A stretch of 59,116 nt of DNA, taken from Clostridia bacterium. GTDB lineage: Bacteria; Bacillota; Clostridia; Oscillospirales; Acutalibacteraceae. Below the pieces are notes generated by a model that saw only the letters and a list, made by a program, of their open reading frames with translations, was not told the origin of the DNA and made no database searches. Position 1 is the stretch's first letter, and each line of letters begins with the position of its first letter. The position numbers and the translations under genes are program-made. Of this stretch, positions 3 to 39,892 are shown in pieces. Location: positions 1-59,116 of the forward strand of contig JAUMXZ010000001.1 in the NCBI GenBank assembly GCA_030528905.1. The letters are read 5' to 3'.

Positions 3-557
3 GAAAATGCTTCCTTTTATTCTTTATCAACCGATAAGTGTAAACGACCGCATGATGAGGTAGCAGAACTTATTAAATTGATGAAACAGTATCTTAAAAG
101 AACGATAAAAGAAGTTTCATCGCAAAATATAAAACTTAACTTTATTGGCGACTTATCAGTATTTGATGACGAAATAAAAGAACTCATAAACGAAACCAAA
201 GAACTTGCCAAACAGAAAACCGGAATGGTTCTTAATATTGCGGTAAACTATGGCGGACGAGATGAAATAGTAAATGCAGTCAGAAAAATTGCAAAAGATG
301 TAAAAGAGTCAAATATCAGCTTGGATGATATAAATCAGGATACTATAAGCCATAATCTATACACAAGCACTCAGCCTGATGTTGATCTGGTGATAAGAAC
401 AAGCGGTGAATATAGGACTTCAAACTTTTTGTTGTGGCAGTCAGCTTATGCTGAATATATATTCACTAAAACTTTATGGCCGGACTTTAATATCGACTGT
501 TTAAATAATGCTTTAAAGGAATATGCTATGCGCAACAGGCGTTATGGAGGAGTGTGA
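3..557 (+). CDS. uppS: Undecaprenyl-diphosphate synthase (cis-prenyltransferase), 5'-truncated by window edge
   Basis: Frame +3 is open from nt 3, so the ORF-track start at 78 is internal. The translation YSLSTDKCKRPHDEVAELIKLM...NIAVNYGGRDEIV...LVIRTSGEYRTSNFLLWQSAYAEY matches UPP synthase signatures. It is followed by cdsA, as in Firmicutes. Confidence 0.9.
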   Translation, partial: ENASFYSLSTDKCKRPHDEVAELIKLMKQYLKRTIKEVSSQNIKLNFIGDLSVFDDEIKELINETKELAKQKTGMVLNIAVNYGGRDEIVNAVRKIAKDVKESNISLDDINQDTISHNLYTSTQPDVDLVIRTSGEYRTSNFLLWQSAYAEYIFTKTLWPDFNIDCLNNALKEYAMRNRRYGGV

Positions 558-561
558 AACG

Positions 562-1392
562 ATGGCTAAAAGAATAATATCAGGTACCGTCGGAGCAGTA
601 TTCATTATTATGGTGGTGTTTTTTTCTTCAGTCTACCCTATTATTATTGATATCGGTATATCAGCTATATGTGCCTGCTCAATATTCGAGATATTTGCTG
701 CTGTTAATATAAAAAGATCTTTTTACCTTGTGGTGCCAAGCGTAGTCTTTTCTCTATTACTGCCGGTATCTATAGCAACACCGTATTGGTGGATTGCTTT
801 TTATCTTTATACTGTAGCATTATTCGGTATAATGATATGGAAAAGAGATGTGTTTAAATTTAAGGATGTTGCTGTCATATATGGTATGACAATTATGGTA
901 ACACTGTCTTTGGCAACATTATCGCTGCTTAGCAAAATGGACGAAAATATAGCAGTGTTCTTTATTATGTTTGTGCTTGTTGTAACCTGGATGTCTGATA
1001 CCGGTGCGTTTTTTATCGGCACAGCCTTTGGAAAACATAAATTAGCACCGACAATCAGTCCTAAAAAGACTGTGGAGGGCGCTTTAGGCGGTGTTGTGTT
1101 TGCGTTAGTGTCAGGTGTTCTTATAAGCTTACTTTTTGAGAAAGTTATACTGTCTCCGCACATATATATAAATTATATAGTTGTAACTGTTTTGTCTTTG
1201 GCAACTTCAGTAATATCAATACTGGGAGATTTGATTTTCTCGTACCTGAAAAGAGCCTGCAATATAAAAGATTTCGGAAATGTTATTCCGGGCCACGGAG
1301 GTATACTTGACAGATTCGACAGCGTTATCTTTGCAGCTCCGTTGATCTATTCTTGTACACTTATAATACCGTGGGCAACATATATAAAATAA
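562..1392 (+). CDS. cdsA: Phosphatidate cytidylyltransferase (CDP-diglyceride synthase)
   Basis: Polytopic membrane protein with the C-terminal signature SYLKRACNIKDFGNVIPGHGGILDRFDS. ATG 562 (GGAGG at 546-550) is preferred over ORF-track start 523, which overlaps uppS. Confidence 0.9.
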   Translation: MAKRIISGTVGAVFIIMVVFFSSVYPIIIDIGISAICACSIFEIFAAVNIKRSFYLVVPSVVFSLLLPVSIATPYWWIAFYLYTVALFGIMIWKRDVFKFKDVAVIYGMTIMVTLSLATLSLLSKMDENIAVFFIMFVLVVTWMSDTGAFFIGTAFGKHKLAPTISPKKTVEGALGGVVFALVSGVLISLLFEKVILSPHIYINYIVVTVLSLATSVISILGDLIFSYLKRACNIKDFGNVIPGHGGILDRFDSVIFAAPLIYSCTLIIPWATYIK

Positions 1393-1407
1393 TCTTAGGA
1401 GTAAAAA

Positions 1408-2562
1408 ATGATCAAGACTATTACTATATTAGGTTCAACCGGCTCAATAGGAACACAGGCATTAGAGGTCTGTAAAAAATTAGGAATACAGGTACAGGCC
1501 CTGACGGCGAAAAGTAATATAGCCTTGCTTGAAAAACAAATAAGAGAATATAAGCCGAAAGCCGCAGCTGTTTATGACAAAGAAAAAGCAAAGATACTAA
1601 AGGAAAATATTTCAGACCTTGATATACCTGTTTACAGCCAAATGGAAGGGCTTTGCAAGATAGCAGCTGATATAGAATCAGATATCGTACTTAATTCGGT
1701 TGTCGGTATGGTTGGACTTAAACCTACTCTTGAGGCAATAAATAATAAAAGACATATAGCTCTTGCGAATAAAGAAACCCTTGTGGCAGGCGGAGAACTT
1801 GTGACTCGGGCAGCAAGAGAAAATGGCGTAAAAATTATCCCTGTTGACAGTGAGCACAGTGCAATCTTTCAGTGTATGCAGGGAATGAACGACAAAAAAG
1901 AATTAAAAAAAATAATATTAACAGCATCAGGTGGTCCGTTTTTTGGCAAAAAAATGAAAGATTTAGAGAATATTACCAAGGAACAGGCGTTAAAACATCC
2001 TAATTGGAGTATGGGTGCGAAAATAACAATCGACAGCGCAACGATGATGAATAAAGGTCTTGAAATTGCTGAGGCAAAATGGCTTTTTGACATAGATGAG
2101 AAAGATATTGATGTCGTTATACATCGGGAAAGCATAATTCATTCGATGATAGAGTATAAAGACAATTCTGTAATCGCTCAAATGGGAGTTGCTGATATGA
2201 GAGTTCCGATACAGTACGCAATAACCTACCCGCAAAGATATCCGTCGTTAGCAGCTGAGCTTGATTTGACACAGATTTCGACCCTGACATTTTTCAAACC
2301 GGATTATGATACCTTTCTGTGCCTGAAAGCCTGTAAGCTTGCTTTGCAAAAAGGCGGACTTTATATGGCTGTAGCAAATGGCGCAAATGAGCAAGCGGTA
2401 GAATTATTTTTAAAGGATGAGATAAAATTCCTTGATATAGGAAATATAGTCCTCAAAGCGGTAAATACTATTGATGTGAGTGATGAAATTACCCTGGAGA
2501 ATATTTTAAAGGCAGATAATGATGCAAGGAATTTTGTGTTGTGTCATTTTAATAAAAAATAA
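1408..2562 (+). CDS. dxr: 1-deoxy-D-xylulose-5-phosphate reductoisomerase
   Basis: Motifs GSTGSIGTQAL, LANKE, DSEHSAIFQC and MNKGLEIAEA. AGGAG SD upstream. Confidence 0.95.
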   Translation: MIKTITILGSTGSIGTQALEVCKKLGIQVQALTAKSNIALLEKQIREYKPKAAAVYDKEKAKILKENISDLDIPVYSQMEGLCKIAADIESDIVLNSVVGMVGLKPTLEAINNKRHIALANKETLVAGGELVTRAARENGVKIIPVDSEHSAIFQCMQGMNDKKELKKIILTASGGPFFGKKMKDLENITKEQALKHPNWSMGAKITIDSATMMNKGLEIAEAKWLFDIDEKDIDVVIHRESIIHSMIEYKDNSVIAQMGVADMRVPIQYAITYPQRYPSLAAELDLTQISTLTFFKPDYDTFLCLKACKLALQKGGLYMAVANGANEQAVELFLKDEIKFLDIGNIVLKAVNTIDVSDEITLENILKADNDARNFVLCHFNKK

Positions 2563-2578
2563 TGAATATCATTTAAAG

Positions 2579-2622
2579 TCGGCTGTGAAGAGGTGTGGTA
2601 ATGTGTCTTCCCAGTCGGTTTT
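2579..2622 (+). terminator. Rho-independent terminator after dxr
   Basis: Arm TCGGCTGTGAAGA (2579-2591) pairs with TCTTCCCAGTCGG (2606-2618), with two G-U pairs and one mismatch. It is followed by TTTT. Confidence 0.6.
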
Positions 2623-2666
2623 AAATTTTGCTGTAAATTGTTAATATTCAAAGGAGTTGGGCTGTT

Positions 2667-3785
2667 ATGGGCTTTATTTTAAATCTGGCACTTATAATAA
2701 TAGGAGTATTATTATTTTGTGTCATTATATTAGTGCACGAATTTGGTCACTTTTCAATGGCAAAGCTTTTTTCTGTTAAAGTTAATGAGTTTTCTATAGG
2801 AATGGGTCCAAAACTTTTCAGAAAACAAAAGGGCGAAACTTTATATACAATAAGAGCGCTGCCCATAGGCGGATTTTGTGCTATGGAAGGCGAAGATGAA
2901 GAAAGTGATTCAGACAGGGCATTTGGAAATAAAAAAGCCTGGCAGAAAATTTTAATAGTGGCAATGGGCGGAATCTTAAATGTAATTCTTGGGTTTATAA
3001 TGATGTTTATAATACTTATTCCGCAAGAAGCTTATGCGACAACAACTGTTGCGCATTTCAGCGAAAATGCCTCAACTCAAAGCTCAGGCCTTATGCTCGA
3101 TGACCGGATAACATCTTTTGACGGTTACAAGATAAATTGCGACAGAGACTTGATGTTTGCGTTTTCAATATCGGAAAAAATAAGAGAAGCCATAAAGTCC
3201 GATTCTATAAACGAAACATATATAGATATGACGGTAAACAGAAACGGACAGCATACAGAATTAAAAAATGTAAGATTTGAAATAGCTACAGCAGAAGATG
3301 GAACAAGATATCTTAATCTTGATTTTAAAGTTTACGGTGAGCAGAAAACCTTCTTAAACACTATAGAAAAAGCCTTTAATTATACTGTTTCTACAGTAAG
3401 AATGGTTTGGGCAAGTTTAGTCGGAATTGTTATGGGGAAATTTGGTGTTAATGATATGGCAGGGCCTATCGGAACAGCATCAGTAATAAGTCAAAGTGCT
3501 GCAGCAGGTCTTGCACAGGGATTTTCAACAGCAGTTTTAAATATAGTGTATATTATGATAATTCTAACGGTTAATCTTGGAGTATTTAATTTATTACCAA
3601 TACCTGCTCTTGACGGAGGCAGATTAGTATTTTTGATATTTGAGTTGATTTTCAGAAAACCTGTAGCACCTAAATTTGAAAAATATGTTCACGCAATAGG
3701 CTTTGTAGCCCTGATTGCATTTATGATCTTCATAACTTGTAATGATATTCTAAGACTGATAACAGGAAACGGAGCATTCATATGA
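2667..3785 (+). CDS. rseP: RIP zinc metalloprotease (site-2 protease, M50 family)
   Basis: HEFGH in the first TM helix and C-terminal NLLPIPALDGG (NxxPxxxLDG). Conserved position between dxr and ispG. Confidence 0.9.
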   Translation: MGFILNLALIIIGVLLFCVIILVHEFGHFSMAKLFSVKVNEFSIGMGPKLFRKQKGETLYTIRALPIGGFCAMEGEDEESDSDRAFGNKKAWQKILIVAMGGILNVILGFIMMFIILIPQEAYATTTVAHFSENASTQSSGLMLDDRITSFDGYKINCDRDLMFAFSISEKIREAIKSDSINETYIDMTVNRNGQHTELKNVRFEIATAEDGTRYLNLDFKVYGEQKTFLNTIEKAFNYTVSTVRMVWASLVGIVMGKFGVNDMAGPIGTASVISQSAAAGLAQGFSTAVLNIVYIMIILTVNLGVFNLLPIPALDGGRLVFLIFELIFRKPVAPKFEKYVHAIGFVALIAFMIFITCNDILRLITGNGAFI

Positions 3786-4834
3786 TAAAAAGAAAGAAAA
3801 CCAAAAAAATAAAAGTGGGTAATATATATATAGGCGGAGATTATAAGATTACTGTGCAGTCTATGCTTAATGCGAAAAATAATGATGTTGATGAGAACAT
3901 CAGGCAGGCTCAAAAGCTTGAAAAAGCAGGCTGTGAGATTATAAGAGTAGCCATTGAAAATAAAGAGGCGGTAAGACTTATAGATGCGATAAAAAATAAG
4001 ATAGATATTCCGCTTGTGGCAGATATTCATTTTGATTATAAATTAGCACTTGAGTGTGCCTATGCAGGAGTTGACAAAATAAGAATAAACCCCGGTAATA
4101 TAGGCAGTGATGATAAAGTAAAAAAAGTAGCAGATATATGTAACAGAAAAAATATCCCGATAAGAATAGGAGTAAATTCCGGCTCATTGGAAAAAGAAAT
4201 TTTAAAAAAATATTCACACCCTTGCGCACAGGCTTTAAGAGACAGTGCTTTGTATCATACATCACTGCTTGAAAAATTTGATTTTGATAACATAATCTTA
4301 TCAATGAAATCATCAGATGTGAAAACTATGGTCAAAGCTTATGAGTTAGTCAGCCAAAGCTGTGATTATCCGCTGCACCTTGGAGTAACTGAGGCAGGAC
4401 TGAAAAGACAGGGCATAGTTAAATCTTCAATAGGAATAGGTGCTTTGTTACTAAAAGGTATTGGCGATACTATAAGAGTTTCACTAACCGATGACCCGGT
4501 AAATGAGGTTGTAGCAGGATTTGACATTTTAAATGCACTTGAGTTAAGAGAAAATAATGTAACTTTTATATCCTGTCCGACATGCGGAAGAACAAAGGTG
4601 GATTTAATATCACTTGCAAATGAGGTTTCAGAAAAATTAAAGGACTGCAAAAAGAAAATCAAAGTAGCCGTAATGGGCTGTGCTGTGAATGGGCCGGGCG
4701 AGGCAAAAGAGGCTGATATAGGTATAGCCGGCGGAGATGGCTGTGGATTGATTTTCAAAAAAGGCGAAATTATAAAAAAAGTAGATGAGTGTGAGCTCGT
4801 TTCAGAACTTGTAAAGGAAATAGAACGCTTATAA
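3782..4834 (+). CDS. ispG: 4-hydroxy-3-methylbut-2-enyl diphosphate synthase
   Basis: GcpE-family sequence with C-terminal Fe-S ligands CPTCGR...GCAVNGPGE. ATGA overlap with the rseP stop. Confidence 0.95.
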   Translation: MIKRKKTKKIKVGNIYIGGDYKITVQSMLNAKNNDVDENIRQAQKLEKAGCEIIRVAIENKEAVRLIDAIKNKIDIPLVADIHFDYKLALECAYAGVDKIRINPGNIGSDDKVKKVADICNRKNIPIRIGVNSGSLEKEILKKYSHPCAQALRDSALYHTSLLEKFDFDNIILSMKSSDVKTMVKAYELVSQSCDYPLHLGVTEAGLKRQGIVKSSIGIGALLLKGIGDTIRVSLTDDPVNEVVAGFDILNALELRENNVTFISCPTCGRTKVDLISLANEVSEKLKDCKKKIKVAVMGCAVNGPGEAKEADIGIAGGDGCGLIFKKGEIIKKVDECELVSELVKEIERL

Positions 4835-4852
4835 AATCAGGAGGTGAGGTAT

Positions 4853-7800
4853 TTGAACAGTTTTGTTGATGTCTTTGAAGACTATATAAAAAAAGAATGT
4901 GTGTCTGAGCAGATATTATCAGCAGAAATTCTTAATATGGAAATCTCAAAAACTAAAAGATGCCTTACCATTGAGCTCAAAACCGATAAATTGGTAAATT
5001 GCAAGTGTATCAGTGCAGTGCAGGAAATGTTAAAACGCTCAAAGTTAGCACTTTCTGATGTCAATATAATTACAGTCTTAAAAAAAGAGTTCTTTACAAA
5101 AGAGAATTTTCTGGAAATCTTAAAAAACTCAAGGCTTGAAAATAACGCGCTTAAAGGCTGTTTTGAAGACTGTGATGCTGTAATAAATAATAATATACTG
5201 ACAATTTACTTAAAACACGGCGGACTTAATCTGTTAAAAGCAAAAAAAGTTGATAACGAAATCTCAAAACTTGTAAGAAAACAATTCGGAGTATCAGTAA
5301 AAGTAAATTTTGAAAACCTTTTGACAGAAGAAGATTTTATAAAAAGAGAACAGGAATTTGAAAAAGTTGAGAACAAAGAAAAAATAAAAACAAAAAATAA
5401 ACCCGATGAAAATGTACCTGTGGAAAAGAATAAACCGAAAGCCAAAGAAATCTCTGTGAGAACACAGGAGAATTTACTCCCGGCAGCAGACCTGACAACA
5501 GTAGAAGCTTTAAGCGGAAAAAAGATAAACGAAAAACCGATTGAGATAAAAAGCTTAAATGCAGGAGATAAAAATGTTATAATATGGGGAGATGTGTTCT
5601 TTAAAGATTTGATAAAATCAAGAGATAATAAAAAGAATATATACACTTTCTATATAACTGACTATACAAGCTCAATCACAATAAAAGCTATATTGTCAGC
5701 TGATAAAAATGATTATCTGGAAAATGTATCAAAGGGTGATACAATAATAGCTAAAGGCCAGGTAAAATATGATGACTATTCAAGAAGCATAGCATTCTTT
5801 CCAAATAACATATGCAAGGTGCAAAAATTAAATGTAGTAGACAAAGCAAAAACGAAAAGAGTAGAACTTCATTTACATAGCAATATGTCAGCAATGGATG
5901 GCGTAAGCAATATATCAGCGTTTATAAACAGAGCGGCAAAATGGGGGCATAAAGCTATTGCTATAACAGACCACGGAGTAGTGCAAAGTTTTCCGGAGGC
6001 TATGTCTGCAATAGAAAAGATAAATAAAAGCGGAAACCCTATGAAGATGATATATGGAATAGAGGCCTACTTTGTAGATGACACTGATGTCTTTGATAAA
6101 AATGAACTAAAACGCTTAAAGTCGTATCATCAGGTTATATTAGTGCAAAATAAAACCGGTCTTAAAAATTTATATAAGCTTGTATCAAAAGCGCATCTTG
6201 AATATTTTTATAAAAGACCAAGAATACCAAAAAGTGAGTTAATAAAACATAGAGAAGGTCTTATAATAGGAAGTGCCTGCGAGGCAGGAGAATTATTCAG
6301 AGCAATGATTGAAGGTAAAACTACAGAGGAGCTTTGCGATATTGCTAAATTTTATGACTATCTTGAAATACAACCTATTGGCAATAACGACTTTATGCTC
6401 AGAAATGGATTAGCTTCATCAAAGGAAGATCTGATAGATTTTAATAAAAAAATAGTAAACATAGGTGATAAGCTGAAAAAACCTGTTGTTGCAACCTGCG
6501 ATGTTCATTTTTTAGACCCGCACGATAATGAATACAGAAAAATACTAATGGCAGGACAGGGTTATTCAGATGCGGACAGACAAGCCCCTCTTTATTTTCG
6601 TACTACAGAAGAAATGCTCGAAGAATTTTCATATTTGGGAAAGGAAAAGGCATATGAAGTTGTAGTGGAAAACACAAATAAAATTGCAGATATGATAACC
6701 CAGGTAAGACCGATACCAAAAGGAGTATATCCTCCGTTTATAGAGGGCGCAGAAAAACAACTGATTGATATAACCTGGGAAAGAACAAAGAGAATTTACG
6801 GAGATCCCCTGCCGGATATAGTGTATAAAAGAATAGACAAAGAACTAAGCTCTATTACAAAGCACGGGTTCTCAGTTCTATATATGACAGCTCAGAAACT
6901 TGTTGCCGATTCTGAAAAACACGGCTATCTTGTAGGATCAAGAGGGTCTGTAGGTTCATCATTTGTAGCAACAATGTCAGGTATATCAGAAGTTAACCCG
7001 TTAGAACCACATTATATATGTCCAAATTGTAAGCACAGTGAATTTTTTACAGACGGAAGTGTAGGCTCAGGTTTTGATTTACCGGCTAAAAATTGCCCGA
7101 AATGTAATACACCCTATAACAGAGATGGCCACGACATACCGTTTGAAACCTTCTTGGGCTTTGACGGAGATAAAACTCCGGATATAGACTTAAACTTCTC
7201 CGGAGAATATCAAAGCTATGCGCATAGATATACAGAAGAACTATTCGGGAAAGATAATGTTTTCAAGGCAGGTACAATTTCGACAATAGCTGAGAAAACA
7301 GGATTAGGCTTTGTAAAGAAATTTGAAGAAGAGAGAAATATCAGCTTAACTAAAGCGGAAGAAGAACGTTTAGCAAACGGCTGTACGGGAGTCAGAAGAA
7401 CAACAGGTCAGCATCCCGGAGGAATGGTAGTAGTCCCTAAAGGTATGGAGATATATGATTTCTGTCCGGTGCAAAGACCGGCAAACGATCAAAATTCTGA
7501 CAATATAACAACACACTTTGATTTTCACTCAATTCATGATACAATATGTAAATTAGATGAACTCGGACACGATGTGCCGTCTATGTACAGATATTTAGAG
7601 GACTTCACAGGAATTTCGGTTATGAATGTATCAATGAGCGACCCGGAGGTGATGTCGCTTTTTACATCAACAAAAGCTTTAGGGGTAACTTGTGAGGAAA
7701 TAGAATCAAAAACAGGAACCTTTTCACTGCCTGAGGTCGGCACAAGCTTTGTAAGAGAAATGCTGATAGAAGCACAGCCTAAAAATTTTTCGGATCTGCT

Positions 7801-8608
7801 TCAAATAGCCGGACTGTCACACGGAACAGATGTCTGGATATCAAACGCACAGGATCTGATAGCTAAAAAAATCTGCACGATATCCGAAGTTATAGGTACA
7901 AGAGATAGTATAATGACATATCTTATACACAAAGGACTTGAACCTAAAATGGCATTTGATATAATGGAAATAACAAGAAAAGGTAAGGCTAAGAAACTTT
8001 TAACGCCGGAACATCTGAAAGCTATGAAAGAACACGGAGTCGAACAATGGTATATAGATTCGTGTATGAAAATTAAATATATGTTCCCAAAAGCCCACGC
8101 AGCGGCTTATATGATAGCAACACTCAGACTTGGCTGGTATAAAGTTCATAGACCGATAGAATATTATGCTGCTTACTTTACTGTTAAAGGCGAGGATTTT
8201 GATGGTCTGTTAGTGATGAAAGGTAAAGAGGCAGTAAAAAACAAGATGAAAGATATAAAATCAAGATGGAACTTTGCTACACAAAAAGAACACGCGCTAT
8301 ATTCAACGCTTCAGATAATAAATGAGATGCTTGCAAGAAATATAGAAGTTCTTCCGGTAGATTTATATAAATCAGATGCAAAGAAGTATCTGATAGAAAA
8401 CGGGAAAATAAGACTTCCGTTTCAATCACTTGCCGGAGTAGGTGTGAATGCAGGCTATAGTCTGCAGCAGGCCAGAAAAGATGGGGAGTTTATTTCCGTA
8501 GAGGATATGCAAATAAGAGCATCTATTAACAAAATCGCTACAGATGCTTTGAAAGAAGCTCATGTTCTTGATGGAATACAAGAAAAAAGTCAAGTTATGT
8601 TTTTTTAA
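4853..8608 (+). CDS. polC: PolC-type DNA polymerase III alpha subunit, lacking the internal 3'-5' exonuclease domain
   Basis: Contains an N-terminal domain, an OB fold (IIWGDVFF...YTFYITDYTSSITIKA), a PHP domain (ELHLHSNMSAMDG, ITDHG, GIEAY, CDVHF), a Zn finger CPNC...CPKC, PDIDLNFSG and HPGG. No ETTG/DEDD motifs are present. TTG 4853 (AGGAGG at 4838-4843, 9-nt spacing) is preferred over GTG 4844, which abuts the SD. Confidence 0.9.
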   Translation: MNSFVDVFEDYIKKECVSEQILSAEILNMEISKTKRCLTIELKTDKLVNCKCISAVQEMLKRSKLALSDVNIITVLKKEFFTKENFLEILKNSRLENNALKGCFEDCDAVINNNILTIYLKHGGLNLLKAKKVDNEISKLVRKQFGVSVKVNFENLLTEEDFIKREQEFEKVENKEKIKTKNKPDENVPVEKNKPKAKEISVRTQENLLPAADLTTVEALSGKKINEKPIEIKSLNAGDKNVIIWGDVFFKDLIKSRDNKKNIYTFYITDYTSSITIKAILSADKNDYLENVSKGDTIIAKGQVKYDDYSRSIAFFPNNICKVQKLNVVDKAKTKRVELHLHSNMSAMDGVSNISAFINRAAKWGHKAIAITDHGVVQSFPEAMSAIEKINKSGNPMKMIYGIEAYFVDDTDVFDKNELKRLKSYHQVILVQNKTGLKNLYKLVSKAHLEYFYKRPRIPKSELIKHREGLIIGSACEAGELFRAMIEGKTTEELCDIAKFYDYLEIQPIGNNDFMLRNGLASSKEDLIDFNKKIVNIGDKLKKPVVATCDVHFLDPHDNEYRKILMAGQGYSDADRQAPLYFRTTEEMLEEFSYLGKEKAYEVVVENTNKIADMITQVRPIPKGVYPPFIEGAEKQLIDITWERTKRIYGDPLPDIVYKRIDKELSSITKHGFSVLYMTAQKLVADSEKHGYLVGSRGSVGSSFVATMSGISEVNPLEPHYICPNCKHSEFFTDGSVGSGFDLPAKNCPKCNTPYNRDGHDIPFETFLGFDGDKTPDIDLNFSGEYQSYAHRYTEELFGKDNVFKAGTISTIAEKTGLGFVKKFEEERNISLTKAEEERLANGCTGVRRTTGQHPGGMVVVPKGMEIYDFCPVQRPANDQNSDNITTHFDFHSIHDTICKLDELGHDVPSMYRYLEDFTGISVMNVSMSDPEVMSLFTSTKALGVTCEEIESKTGTFSLPEVGTSFVREMLIEAQPKNFSDLLQIAGLSHGTDVWISNAQDLIAKKICTISEVIGTRDSIMTYLIHKGLEPKMAFDIMEITRKGKAKKLLTPEHLKAMKEHGVEQWYIDSCMKIKYMFPKAHAAAYMIATLRLGWYKVHRPIEYYAAYFTVKGEDFDGLLVMKGKEAVKNKMKDIKSRWNFATQKEHALYSTLQIINEMLARNIEVLPVDLYKSDAKKYLIENGKIRLPFQSLAGVGVNAGYSLQQARKDGEFISVEDMQIRASINKIATDALKEAHVLDGIQEKSQVMFF

Positions 8609-36470: not shown

Positions 36471-36493
36471 TAGTAAAATGGGAGTTGAAAAAA

Positions 36494-37804
36494 ATGACTA
36501 AATTTTTCCATTCCGTTATGTTAGAAAAAAATAAATGTGTTGGGTGTACAAACTGTGTTAAACGTTGTCCGACTCAAGCAATAAGAGTAAGAAATGGAAA
36601 AGCAGTTATACATTCAAAAAGATGTATTGACTGTGGCGAATGTATAAGAGTGTGTCCGCATAAAGCTAAAAAAGCAGCAACTAAAAAGATATCAATAATA
36701 AAAGATTTTGAATATACCGTTGCAATTCCAGACCCTTCGCTTTTTGGACAATTTAATAATTTAAAAGATATAAATGTGGTACTTACAGCAATTAAAAAAT
36801 TAGGTTTTAATTTTGTGTATGAGGCTTCAAGAGGAGCAGAATTGATAATGGATTCAATAAAAAAGCTCCTTGAGGAAAACAGGATAAGAACTCCTATTAT
36901 AAGCTCAGCTTGTCCTGCTATAGTAAGACTTATAAGACTTAGGTTTCCTGATTTATGCGATAATGTTCTTGAACTTGAAGCGCCGATGGAAGTAACAGCA
37001 AAGCTTGCAAAGGATGAGATTTCAGAAAAATATGGGATACCATTTGAGAAAATAAAGGCAGTCTTTATAGCACCTTGTCCTGCTAAAGTCAGCGCTGTGG
37101 CAGCACCGCTTGCAAAAGATAAATCTTGGGTGGATGCGGTTATTTCAATAGGCGATGTATATCCACTTTTGATAAGCGAGATGTCAAAGCTTTCAAAAGA
37201 TGATATAGAAGATATAGCAAAGTCCGGCTCTGAAGGTATCGGCTGGGGGGTAAGCTCAGCAGCCGCTCGTACATTTTTTAACGAGAAATATCTTGCGGCT
37301 GACGGAATAGAAAACGCAATAAGAATACTTGAGGAGTTAGAAGAATTCAGAATAAGAGGAATAGACTTCATAGAACTCTCAGCCTGTTCAGCCGGCTGTG
37401 TGGGCGGAGTTATGTGTGTTGAGAATGCGTATGTAGCAAAGGCTAAAATACACAAGCTAATGAAGGACCTGCCGCTGTTTAAAAATAGTGTAGACGGCGA
37501 AATACCTGACTTTTTAAGATGGGAAAAGGAACTTGAGTTTGAACCTGTTTTAAAGCTGTCAGAAGATGTGGGAGAAGCGATAGCTCTTATGGACAAGATG
37601 GATAAACTGTATGAGTCGCTGCCGGGTATGGATTGCGGATCGTGCGGAGCACCAACCTGCAGAGCTTTTGCAGAAGATGTCGTAATGGGCAGAGCTAAGC
37701 AAAATAATTGTATATATATTTTAAAAGATCATATAGAATATGTCATAGATACGCTTGAAGATACTTTGAAAAAACTCAAGGGGGTTACATTTGATGACTC
37801 TTAA
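36494..37804 (+). CDS. [FeFe]-hydrogenase-like (H-domain) putative sensory iron-sulfur protein
   Basis: N-terminal 2x[4Fe-4S] ferredoxin motifs (CVGCTNCVKRCP, CIDCGECIRVCP). Modified H-cluster motifs SSACPA (36902-36919), APCPAK (37070-37087) and ELSACSAGCVGGV (37373-37411). C-terminal CGSCGAPTCRAF Fe-S motif. ATG 36494 is preferred over the ORF-track TTG 36485. Confidence 0.75.
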   Translation: MTKFFHSVMLEKNKCVGCTNCVKRCPTQAIRVRNGKAVIHSKRCIDCGECIRVCPHKAKKAATKKISIIKDFEYTVAIPDPSLFGQFNNLKDINVVLTAIKKLGFNFVYEASRGAELIMDSIKKLLEENRIRTPIISSACPAIVRLIRLRFPDLCDNVLELEAPMEVTAKLAKDEISEKYGIPFEKIKAVFIAPCPAKVSAVAAPLAKDKSWVDAVISIGDVYPLLISEMSKLSKDDIEDIAKSGSEGIGWGVSSAAARTFFNEKYLAADGIENAIRILEELEEFRIRGIDFIELSACSAGCVGGVMCVENAYVAKAKIHKLMKDLPLFKNSVDGEIPDFLRWEKELEFEPVLKLSEDVGEAIALMDKMDKLYESLPGMDCGSCGAPTCRAFAEDVVMGRAKQNNCIYILKDHIEYVIDTLEDTLKKLKGVTFDDS

Positions 37805-38180: not shown

Positions 38181-39173
38181 ATGGAAAAAAGTTATGTGTT
38201 GGATTGTGTTATGGGGTTTATAACGGGAGATTGCTTCGGGGCACAGCTTGACGGAGTGGATGTAAGAAAAACAGGAACAGGCCCGATTTATAAGCCGCAG
38301 GAGAAGAATGTTTATGGATTTCCGTTTGGAACTTTTACATCTGTTTCTTCTCTTATGCTGTGTTGCGCAAAGAGCCTTGCAAATGGTGTAGACTGCGATG
38401 ATATAATGGAGAATTTTTCAAAGTGGTATACTTTTGGTTATATGAGTCCTGCTAAAAGAGCTTTTGCTGTTGATAATGTGATATTAAGGTCAATTATAAA
38501 TTACAAAAAGGGTATTCGTCCGGCTGTAGAATGTGGAAAGACTAATGATTATGACAGTATAAACTCCGTTTTAAACTATATTTTACCGCTTGCCTTTGTA
38601 GTAAAAGATCTGTCGCAAAAGGATAAATTTGATACTATAAAGGAAGTCTGCAGGCTTACAAGCAGCAAAAAAGATTCACATATTGCAGCATCGCTGTTTG
38701 TGTTGTTTATCATAAACCTGCTTGAAAATAGAGATAAAAATAAAGTAAAAATCTTTAACGATACGCTAAAAGAGATATATATGTATTTTTTAAAAGATGA
38801 GGAGTATAAATACAGTTTATCTAAATGCGCAAAAATATTTTATGCAGCGGTAGAAAACAAGAACAAAGATATACTATATGAATTAGATACGCTAAGAGAC
38901 GCACTTGAAGTGGCGCTTAAATCCTTTTTTGAGCGTGATGGCGCATTTTTATCTATAGTTGACTGTGCAGGTTACGGCGGAGATTCAGCCTTAGCAACGG
39001 CTCTTGTAGGAGCTATGTGTGCAGCGTACAATGATGAAGATATGGATATGATTATTGATTGGCAGGAATATATAAATAAGATTCCGGAGATAGATGAAAT
39101 TTGCAACACCATTTACAGTAAATATATAGACAAGAATGACAAGCAGAACAAAGAACAAGAGGCACAGATATGA
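38181..39173 (+). CDS. ADP-ribosylglycohydrolase-fold protein with degenerate metal-binding motifs
   Basis: N-terminal GFITGDCFG (GDALG-like). GTFTSVSSL occupies the place of GxxTDDTxM, and GGDSALATALVGAM the place of GGDxDTxxAxxGA. The stop overlaps the next gene's ATG (ATGA). Confidence 0.6.
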   Translation: MEKSYVLDCVMGFITGDCFGAQLDGVDVRKTGTGPIYKPQEKNVYGFPFGTFTSVSSLMLCCAKSLANGVDCDDIMENFSKWYTFGYMSPAKRAFAVDNVILRSIINYKKGIRPAVECGKTNDYDSINSVLNYILPLAFVVKDLSQKDKFDTIKEVCRLTSSKKDSHIAASLFVLFIINLLENRDKNKVKIFNDTLKEIYMYFLKDEEYKYSLSKCAKIFYAAVENKNKDILYELDTLRDALEVALKSFFERDGAFLSIVDCAGYGGDSALATALVGAMCAAYNDEDMDMIIDWQEYINKIPEIDEICNTIYSKYIDKNDKQNKEQEAQI

Positions 39174-39892
39174 AGCTTTTTTACGATTTTCATATACATT
39201 CAGCACTTTCTCCGTGTGCAGAAAATGATATGACACCGAGCAATATTATAAATATGTCAATTATAAATGAACTTGATGTGATAGCCTTAACAGACCATAA
39301 TTGTTCTAAGAACTGTAAAACACTTATGAATCTTGGCAGAGAAAACGATATTCTTGTAATTGCGGGAATGGAGCTTACAACACAGGAAGAAGTACATATG
39401 GTTATGCTGTTTAAAGAGTTATATTCAGCCGAAAAATTTTCAGAATTTGTACAAAGCAGAATAATGAAAGTTCCAAACAGACCTGAAATTTTCGGAGATC
39501 AGCTGATAATGGACGAAAAAGACAACATAATCGGAGTACAGGAAAACTGGCTTGTGCCGGCAACAGATATATCAATAGACAAAGCTTATGATTTAGCCAA
39601 AGAATATGACGCAGCAATATTCCCGGCACATATCAACAGGGCTTCCCACAGTATTATATCAAACCTTGGTGTGTTTCCTGATCAGCCTGATTTTAGCTGT
39701 GTCGAGGTGAGTAAAACAGCAGACGTAAACAGCTTGATAAAAAGTTATCCGCTGCTTTCAAAAAAGTTAATCCTGCACGACTCTGATGCTCATAGATTAG
39801 AAGATATGCTACTTGATTTTCATAGTATAGAAGTTGAAGAAAAAAATGAAAAATCTGTTATAGATGCTATAAACAGGGGCCTTGGTTTGTAA
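39170..39892 (+). CDS. PHP-domain metal-dependent phosphoesterase
   Basis: FYDFHIHSALSPCA, IALTDHN, GMELT, PAHINR and LHDSDAH are PHP motif contexts. Confidence 0.8.
   Translation: MKLFYDFHIHSALSPCAENDMTPSNIINMSIINELDVIALTDHNCSKNCKTLMNLGRENDILVIAGMELTTQEEVHMVMLFKELYSAEKFSEFVQSRIMKVPNRPEIFGDQLIMDEKDNIIGVQENWLVPATDISIDKAYDLAKEYDAAIFPAHINRASHSIISNLGVFPDQPDFSCVEVSKTADVNSLIKSYPLLSKKLILHDSDAHRLEDMLLDFHSIEVEEKNEKSVIDAINRGLGL

Follow-up and report, generated by a model that had tools for sequence, protein, structure and literature searches.

Exonuclease-less PolC with an intact PHP metal site in a Clostridia genome, and repeated loss of the DnaQ-like domain among its relatives

The first 59,116 nucleotides of contig JAUMXZ010000001.1 (assembly GCA_030528905.1, a Clostridia bacterium assigned to the Acutalibacteraceae), referred to here as the window, carry a polC gene whose product, a PolC-type DNA polymerase III alpha subunit, lacks the DnaQ-like proofreading exonuclease domain. 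The open reading frame occupies 4844..8608 (+) and is uninterrupted, giving 1254 amino acids from a GTG codon at 4844. The favoured start is the TTG at 4853, supported by an AGGAGG sequence at 4840-4845 and by the gene call of an independent assembly; with this start the protein has 1251 amino acids, the length given in a preliminary description of the DNA. Residues are numbered throughout from the GTG at 4844, so that 3 must be subtracted for the TTG start. The gene, its parts and its upstream neighbours are arranged as follows.

523..4834, + strand: conserved upstream neighbours, namely an uppS/cdsA-like open reading frame at 523-1392 (not typed), dxr-like, rseP and ispG
4853..8608, + strand: polC, exonuclease-less PolC-type DNA polymerase III alpha, from profile searches and start-site evidence
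4862..5425, + strand: PolC-specific N-terminal domain, with Pfam NI at residues 7-65 and NII at residues 91-194
5612..5779, + strand: OB fold, residues 257-312, from a weak Pfam match (E = 0.001) and strands in the structural model
5864..6082, + strand: N-terminal part of the PHP domain, ending in the strand GIEAYFVDD, with ligands H343, H345, D352, H377 and E407
6083..6124, + strand: 14-amino-acid linker TDVFDKNELKRLKS, at the site of the DnaQ-like DEDDh insert of orthologues, which are longer here by ~192 amino acids
6125..6643, + strand: C-terminal part of the PHP domain, from YHQVILV, with ligands H429, C479, D553 and H555
6758..8011, + strand: polymerase core (palm, thumb and fingers), with PDIDLNF at residue 779 and HPGG at residue 857
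7019..7105, + strand: Zn-finger cysteines CPNC...CPKC, C726-C754 (motif span 724-756), from the sequence and invariant alignment columns
8339..8584, + strand: tandem helix-hairpin-helix domain (HHH_6), from Pfam
8588..8605, + strand: C-terminal motif SQVMFF of the sliding-clamp-binding type, aligned with SQMTLF, NQISLF and similar motifs in relatives

All elements of the PolC-specific layout that had been recognized earlier (N-terminal domain, OB fold, PHP domain, CPNC/CPKC finger, PDIDLNF and HPGG) were found. Pfam matched NI (E = 7e-4, below the gathering threshold) and NII (E = 9e-8), both N-terminal to PHP, as well as OB, PHP (residues 341-504), DNA_pol3_alpha, finger and HHH_6; the type of the clamp motif follows the supplement of PMC3919608. 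The protein scored well above the cut-offs of both curated PolC equivalog models (NF001688, 1508.7 bits vs 873; TIGR01405, 1366.8 bits vs 1043.45), whereas its best score against the curated DnaE-type models was 231 bits for a cut-off of 1260, and its OB fold is N-terminal, which places it outside the DnaE type.

The exonuclease domain is missing at a precisely defined junction. The segment MIYGIEAYFVDD ends at residue 413 and is followed by TDVFDKNELKRLKS (residues 414-427, nucleotides 6083-6124) and then by YHQVILVQNKTGLKNLYKLVS; that is, MIYGIEAYFVDD413 passes through the linker into Y428-H429-QVILVQNKTGLKNLYKLVS, confirming that only 14 amino acids join GIEAYFVDD to the downstream PHP strand. 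In the alignment, exonuclease-containing relatives have ~192 extra residues exactly at this junction, carrying the FDxETTG, HNAxFD and HxAxxD motifs. A Pfam search of the window protein did not detect PF00929 (RNase_T/DnaQ) even at E <= 1, and three exonuclease-less relatives gave no PF00929 match in the search in which an exonuclease-containing orthologue (L021), serving as a positive control, matched with E = 6e-38. The NF001688 match was split in two, and its better part aligned residues 417-1254 with profile positions 604-1444, leaving the exonuclease part of the profile unmatched. Pfam and NCBIfam searches and the alignment thus confirm the absence of the PolC-specific exonuclease insert. 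In the cryo-electron microscopy structure of Enterococcus faecium PolC, PHP strands three and four flank the exonuclease domain (PMC12592400). An AlphaFold (AF2) model of residues 231-1254, which was of moderate quality (predicted local distance difference test, pLDDT, 71; predicted template modelling score, pTM, 0.54) and was used for local junction topology only, predicts a loop and a one-turn helix for the linker, between the strands MIYGIEAYFVD and SYHQVILV. The DnaQ-like domain is cleanly excised from an orthologous PolC replicase.

Such a gap could also reflect a deletion introduced by assembly or sequencing, a pseudogene, or a secondary paralogue residing beside a full-length polC, and the only point in favour of these readings is that the genome beyond the 59-kb window lies out of view. 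The frame is uninterrupted, and the polC gene in an independent assembly (the Logan assembly of run SRR13390164; 98.4% nucleotide identity, 1241/1251 identical residues) has an identical junction and linker. The two genes differ by 47.5 synonymous and 11.5 non-synonymous changes, and the resulting ratio of non-synonymous to synonymous rates (dN/dS) of 0.06 indicates that polC is under strong purifying selection. Relatives do share the gap: the same architecture occurs in 36 of 80 genomes from related species, one of them that of the cultured isolate Yeguia hominis NSJ-40. These comparison loci were the best 80, drawn from one-genome-per-species assemblies, and no assembly supplied two polC loci among them. 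In addition, the uppS-dxr-rseP-ispG-polC order is common to exonuclease-less loci and to 40+ exonuclease-containing related loci, which puts the window gene at the canonical polC position. The window polC is therefore an intact orthologous gene and, by position, not a paralogue; an artefact at the junction, which had been named as one of the findings that would overturn the claim, is contradicted by the independent assembly and by dozens of species, and the artefact, pseudogene and paralogue explanations together are now very improbable.

Exonuclease-less PolCs are abundant and were known beforehand. They account for 31 of the best 120 clusters at 90% identity, and for 35 of the best 142 representatives at 50% identity that span the junction, where their linkers measure 1-58 amino acids; the other 107 representatives have at least 135 amino acids at this site (median 207). 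The genomes nearest to the window are metagenome-assembled genomes of the Eubacteriales/Acutalibacteraceae and Y. hominis. Coverage of the window species itself in sequence collections appears poor: PolC identity reaches no more than 64-66% among one-genome-per-species GTDB assemblies, and a single Logan contig (from SRR13390164) is 99% identical to the window.

Timinskas, Balvociute, Timinskas and Venclovas (Nucleic Acids Research 2014; PMC3919608) found that 6% of PolCs lacked the exonuclease insertion, all of them from Clostridia or Negativicutes except for an extra copy in Thermotogae, and already reported exonuclease-less PolCs with an intact PHP site; PolC pairs with DnaE1 in these two classes. 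One example given there is the 1191-amino-acid protein of Acidaminococcus fermentans (YP_003399045.1), with N-terminal domain, OB, PHP, Pol3 and helix-hairpin-helix domains and the PHP signature HHDHEHCDH. These proteins and the window PolC share the same domain order without the exonuclease, all nine signature residues, a C-terminal clamp motif of the Qxx[LM]F type and a host in the class Clostridia. The window PolC differs in belonging to gut Acutalibacteraceae/Yeguiaceae-like Eubacteriales rather than Negativicutes and in having its own 14-amino-acid linker, and its pairing with DnaE1 is drawn only from the literature. Our literature search found no paper on exonuclease-less PolCs after 2014. 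The window protein is thus another member of a variant known since 2014 and plentiful in metagenomes. What is added here is the repeated independent loss of the domain in one gut Clostridia group, a pattern absent from the available part of the 2014 paper for any single family-level group, together with the similar GC content and flanking-protein divergence of loci with and without the exonuclease (see below) and the finding that a cultured isolate carries the variant.

To follow the losses we used two neighbour-joining trees, one of PolC, from which the exonuclease columns had been taken out (78 sequences, 1199 columns), and one of the concatenated flanking proteins Dxr, RseP and IspG (64 taxa, 1074 columns). 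Several distinct exonuclease-less groups were nested among exonuclease-containing sequences: one deep clade with 19 members, a rumen group (L009-L015), a further group (L001-L008) to which attachment of the window sequence was unsupported, and Y. hominis, which tended to join three exonuclease-containing species (~40% bootstrap). The exonuclease-less sequences came out as monophyletic in 0/100 bootstraps of either tree. Every bootstrap replicate required at least four Fitch steps (state changes), and 95% of flank-tree replicates gave five. The linkers also differ, being 11-18 amino acids long in the relatives of the window sequence, ~33 in the rumen group (SKPFEGEDxICENCS...) and ~24 in Y. hominis (..LPEGEDLV-KKL), and the latter two differ in what they have kept of the segment leading into the exonuclease domain. 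The bootstrapped trees and the differing linkers rule out a single ancestral loss. The exonuclease domain has been lost at least four times independently in this group, and probably five times, a count that is provisional given the simple distance method behind the trees. Gradual decay before loss was likewise rejected: the DEDDh residues are intact and invariant in 43/43 exonuclease-containing relatives, and no intermediates were sampled. Within the rumen group, six sequences (L009-L012, L014 and L015) share a conserved 33-amino-acid linker, SKPFEGED(A/V)IC(E/Q)NCS(Q/M)L..EELKK, whose CxNC pair is not found in exonuclease-containing relatives.

The PHP metal site, in contrast to the exonuclease, has been kept. 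The candidate ligands named in the preliminary description are intact: the nine positions H343, H345, D352, H377, E407, H429, C479, D553 and H555 read HHDHEHCDH, the signature used to call a PHP domain 'active' (PMC12926913). This signature was invariant in the 78 sequences compared, comprising 35/35 exonuclease-less and 43/43 exonuclease-containing proteins, and among the full-length exonuclease-less representatives of the wider set it was present in 21/22. The apparent exception is a 1178-amino-acid protein (P0322) with the degenerate signature HRSLENSDQ. In the literature, the C669Y substitution in Clostridium thermocellum PolC is a mutator mutation; C479 of the window protein would correspond to C669, because the two are offset by ~190 residues and align to the GSxC motif of Geobacillus PolC.

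Separately, six of the 50%-identity representatives (P0280, P0303, P0343, P0376, P0380 and P0348) are PolC-like proteins of 850-980 amino acids that begin at the PHP domain and are devoid of the N-terminal domain, the OB fold and the exonuclease. Four of them have degenerate PHP ligands and hence appear to be without both proofreaders; these short proteins may be fragments or element-encoded.

We propose that the exonuclease-less PolC is a functional orthologous replicase and that the PHP sites of PolC and DnaE1 retain fidelity, a reading to which we assign a probability of roughly 0.55. According to this proposal, the clostridial replisome of the PolC + DnaE1 type would have several redundant proofreaders, the DnaQ domain among them. 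Following loss of this domain, 3'-5' editing would be carried out in cis by the metal-dependent exonuclease site of the PolC PHP domain, and the PHP site of the partner DnaE1 would edit as well; loss would be tolerated because these two sites edit mismatches, and fidelity would be kept. The DnaQ domain is probably redundant with PHP-based proofreading and dispensable. Clostridia usually have three 'active' proofreaders (PMC12926913), and an engineered Staphylococcus aureus PolC deleted for residues 415-609 polymerises at 330 s-1 (PMC3656037). Repeated loss, combined with a retained PHP site and with GC content and flanking-protein divergence like those of exonuclease-containing relatives, leads us to suggest, more tentatively and at odds somewhat below even, that in Clostridia with PolC and DnaE1 the replicative proofreading of PolC falls chiefly to the PHP site rather than to the DnaQ domain.

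If fidelity were reduced by the loss, a mutator footprint might be expected at these loci, and this candidate was rejected. Locus GC content was 0.429 in the exonuclease-less and 0.418 in the exonuclease-containing class, that is, without a difference, and the distance of the flanking proteins (Dxr, RseP and IspG) to the outgroup was 0.680 vs 0.689, no faster in the exonuclease-less class. The two classes being alike in these two measures, neither gives a sign of reduced fidelity. Several observations do weigh against PHP-based compensation. The PolC core is ~5% more diverged in the exonuclease-less class (0.468 vs 0.445), an excess that is uncorrected for shared ancestry and unexplained. Among the wider representatives, the PHP signature is kept in 30/35 exonuclease-less vs 67/107 exonuclease-containing proteins (Fisher p = 0.012), an enrichment confounded by phylogeny because losses occur only where the PHP domain is intact anyway. 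Relatives that contain the exonuclease conserve the ligands to the same degree, which means that this conservation is no particular mark of the loss, and the effect of C669Y could be structural rather than catalytic. To our knowledge, exonuclease activity has not been measured directly for any PolC PHP domain. Finally, neither the 59-kb window nor the 81 loci contained a DnaE-type open reading frame. Every bacterium has a DnaE-type subunit (PMC12926913), and Ethanoligenens harbinense, also of the Clostridia, has in the literature an exonuclease-containing PolC together with a DnaE1 that has nine of nine PHP residues. The earlier suggestion that proofreading may have moved to the PHP domain stands as far as the intact site is concerned; the move itself does not, since the same ligands are invariant in the 43 exonuclease-containing relatives, so that PHP activity, if present, predates the loss.

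A stand-alone DnaQ-like exonuclease of the epsilon type, docked on PolC or DnaE1, could instead proofread in trans, as in Escherichia coli. Stand-alone PF00929 exonucleases of ~190 amino acids are indeed common in related gut Oscillospiraceae, and proteomes hold on average more than three stand-alone DnaQ homologues, most of which are nevertheless not replisome subunits (PMC12926913). We built a hidden Markov model from the exonuclease domains of the relatives' PolCs and ran it on open reading frames of at least 60 amino acids in the window and the 80 loci. At E <= 10 it matched nothing in the window, nor anything at up to 10 kb from an exonuclease-less polC, and we therefore also rejected domain fission with the exonuclease left next door. 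The sole stand-alone example, a 206-amino-acid DnaQ-like protein (L033, 2910-3527 (+); PF00929, E = 4e-22), lies 6-7 kb upstream of a polC that contains the exonuclease, and is thus not a replacement. A database search with it gave 1040 relatives at E <= 1e-5, mostly ~190-amino-acid proteins of gut Oscillospiraceae, and these showed no usable link to exonuclease-less genomes. A few members are ~340 amino acids long or fused to PF01396. On this balance we consider proofreading in trans unlikely.

We hold it comparably doubtful that PolC has been demoted in these bacteria, with DnaE1 and its own PHP proofreader acting as the bulk replicase and the exonuclease-less PolC confined to a limited, unproofread role. 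This idea was raised by Timinskas et al., who cite exonuclease-less PolCs in its support (PMC3919608), and the repeated loss described above shows that this group can do without the domain. Against the idea stand the dN/dS of 0.06, the 74-78% identity of the C-terminal two-thirds of the protein to exonuclease-containing orthologues and the retention of catalytic and clamp motifs, as well as the nine PHP ligands that are invariant in 35/35 exonuclease-less proteins, which would be hard to explain if editing were irrelevant.

The window PolC can be set beside three further known systems. The canonical PolCs of Bacillus subtilis, S. aureus and E. faecium (9QPC) have the same domain order, Zn finger, catalytic motifs and helix-hairpin-helix domain as the window protein, which exceeds both curated equivalog cut-offs and occupies the chromosomal position of exonuclease-containing orthologues; they differ in a DEDDh domain of ~190-210 amino acids between the third and fourth PHP strands. 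In the engineered PolC-deltaN-deltaExo constructs (Geobacillus kaustophilus, 3F2B/3F2C/3F2D; S. aureus), the exonuclease was removed at the same position and replaced by a short linker, and the sequences and folds closest to the window protein across its junction were those of the exonuclease-deleted Geobacillus structures 3F2B and 3F2C. Made in the laboratory, these constructs are without the N-terminal domain as well, whereas the window PolC is natural, selected and full-length. The PHP-proofreading DnaE1 enzymes of Thermus thermophilus and Mycobacterium tuberculosis resemble it in having a nine-residue PHP site and no covalent DnaQ; the window protein differs in being of the PolC type, with a PHP exonuclease activity that is only predicted from its ligands. 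The M. tuberculosis DnaE1 was reportedly identified as a PHP-proofreading polymerase by Rock et al. in 2015.

The division of labour and the proofreading of the clostridial PolC + DnaE1 replisome are still uncharacterised experimentally. Natural exonuclease-less PolCs show that the textbook proofreading domain of PolC is dispensable in this setting. They are abundant in gut Clostridia, at least one cultured isolate has them, and PHP proofreading could readily be tested with them. Were the PHP site indeed the principal proofreader, Y. hominis would provide a natural system for the first demonstration of PHP proofreading in a PolC. The variant may also bear on antibiotics directed at PolC: their targets are Gram-positive pathogens, yet gut commensals are exposed to them as well. 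Since the basic observation dates back a decade, the value added here is incremental.

Beyond polC and its upstream neighbours, the window contains a his operon, ribosomal protein operons, secY, adk, map, rpoA, rpoB, rpoC, nth and a gene for a class A penicillin-binding protein, together with a hydrogenase cluster of the electron-bifurcating type. Adjoining the hydrogenase genes are an open reading frame resembling a sensory-type [FeFe]-hydrogenase (36485-37804 (+)) and an ADP-ribosylglycohydrolase gene (38181-39173 (+)). The only other PHP domain in the window belongs to a small stand-alone protein encoded at 39170-39892 (+) (PF02811, E = 2e-7), which is probably regulatory and unrelated to replication. 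All substantial genes from 78 to 52828 (~53 kb) lie on the + strand, with a GC skew of +0.13 to +0.24 and a steadily positive AT skew; this gene bias and these skews indicate a strongly leading-strand-biased region, typical of PolC-using Firmicutes.

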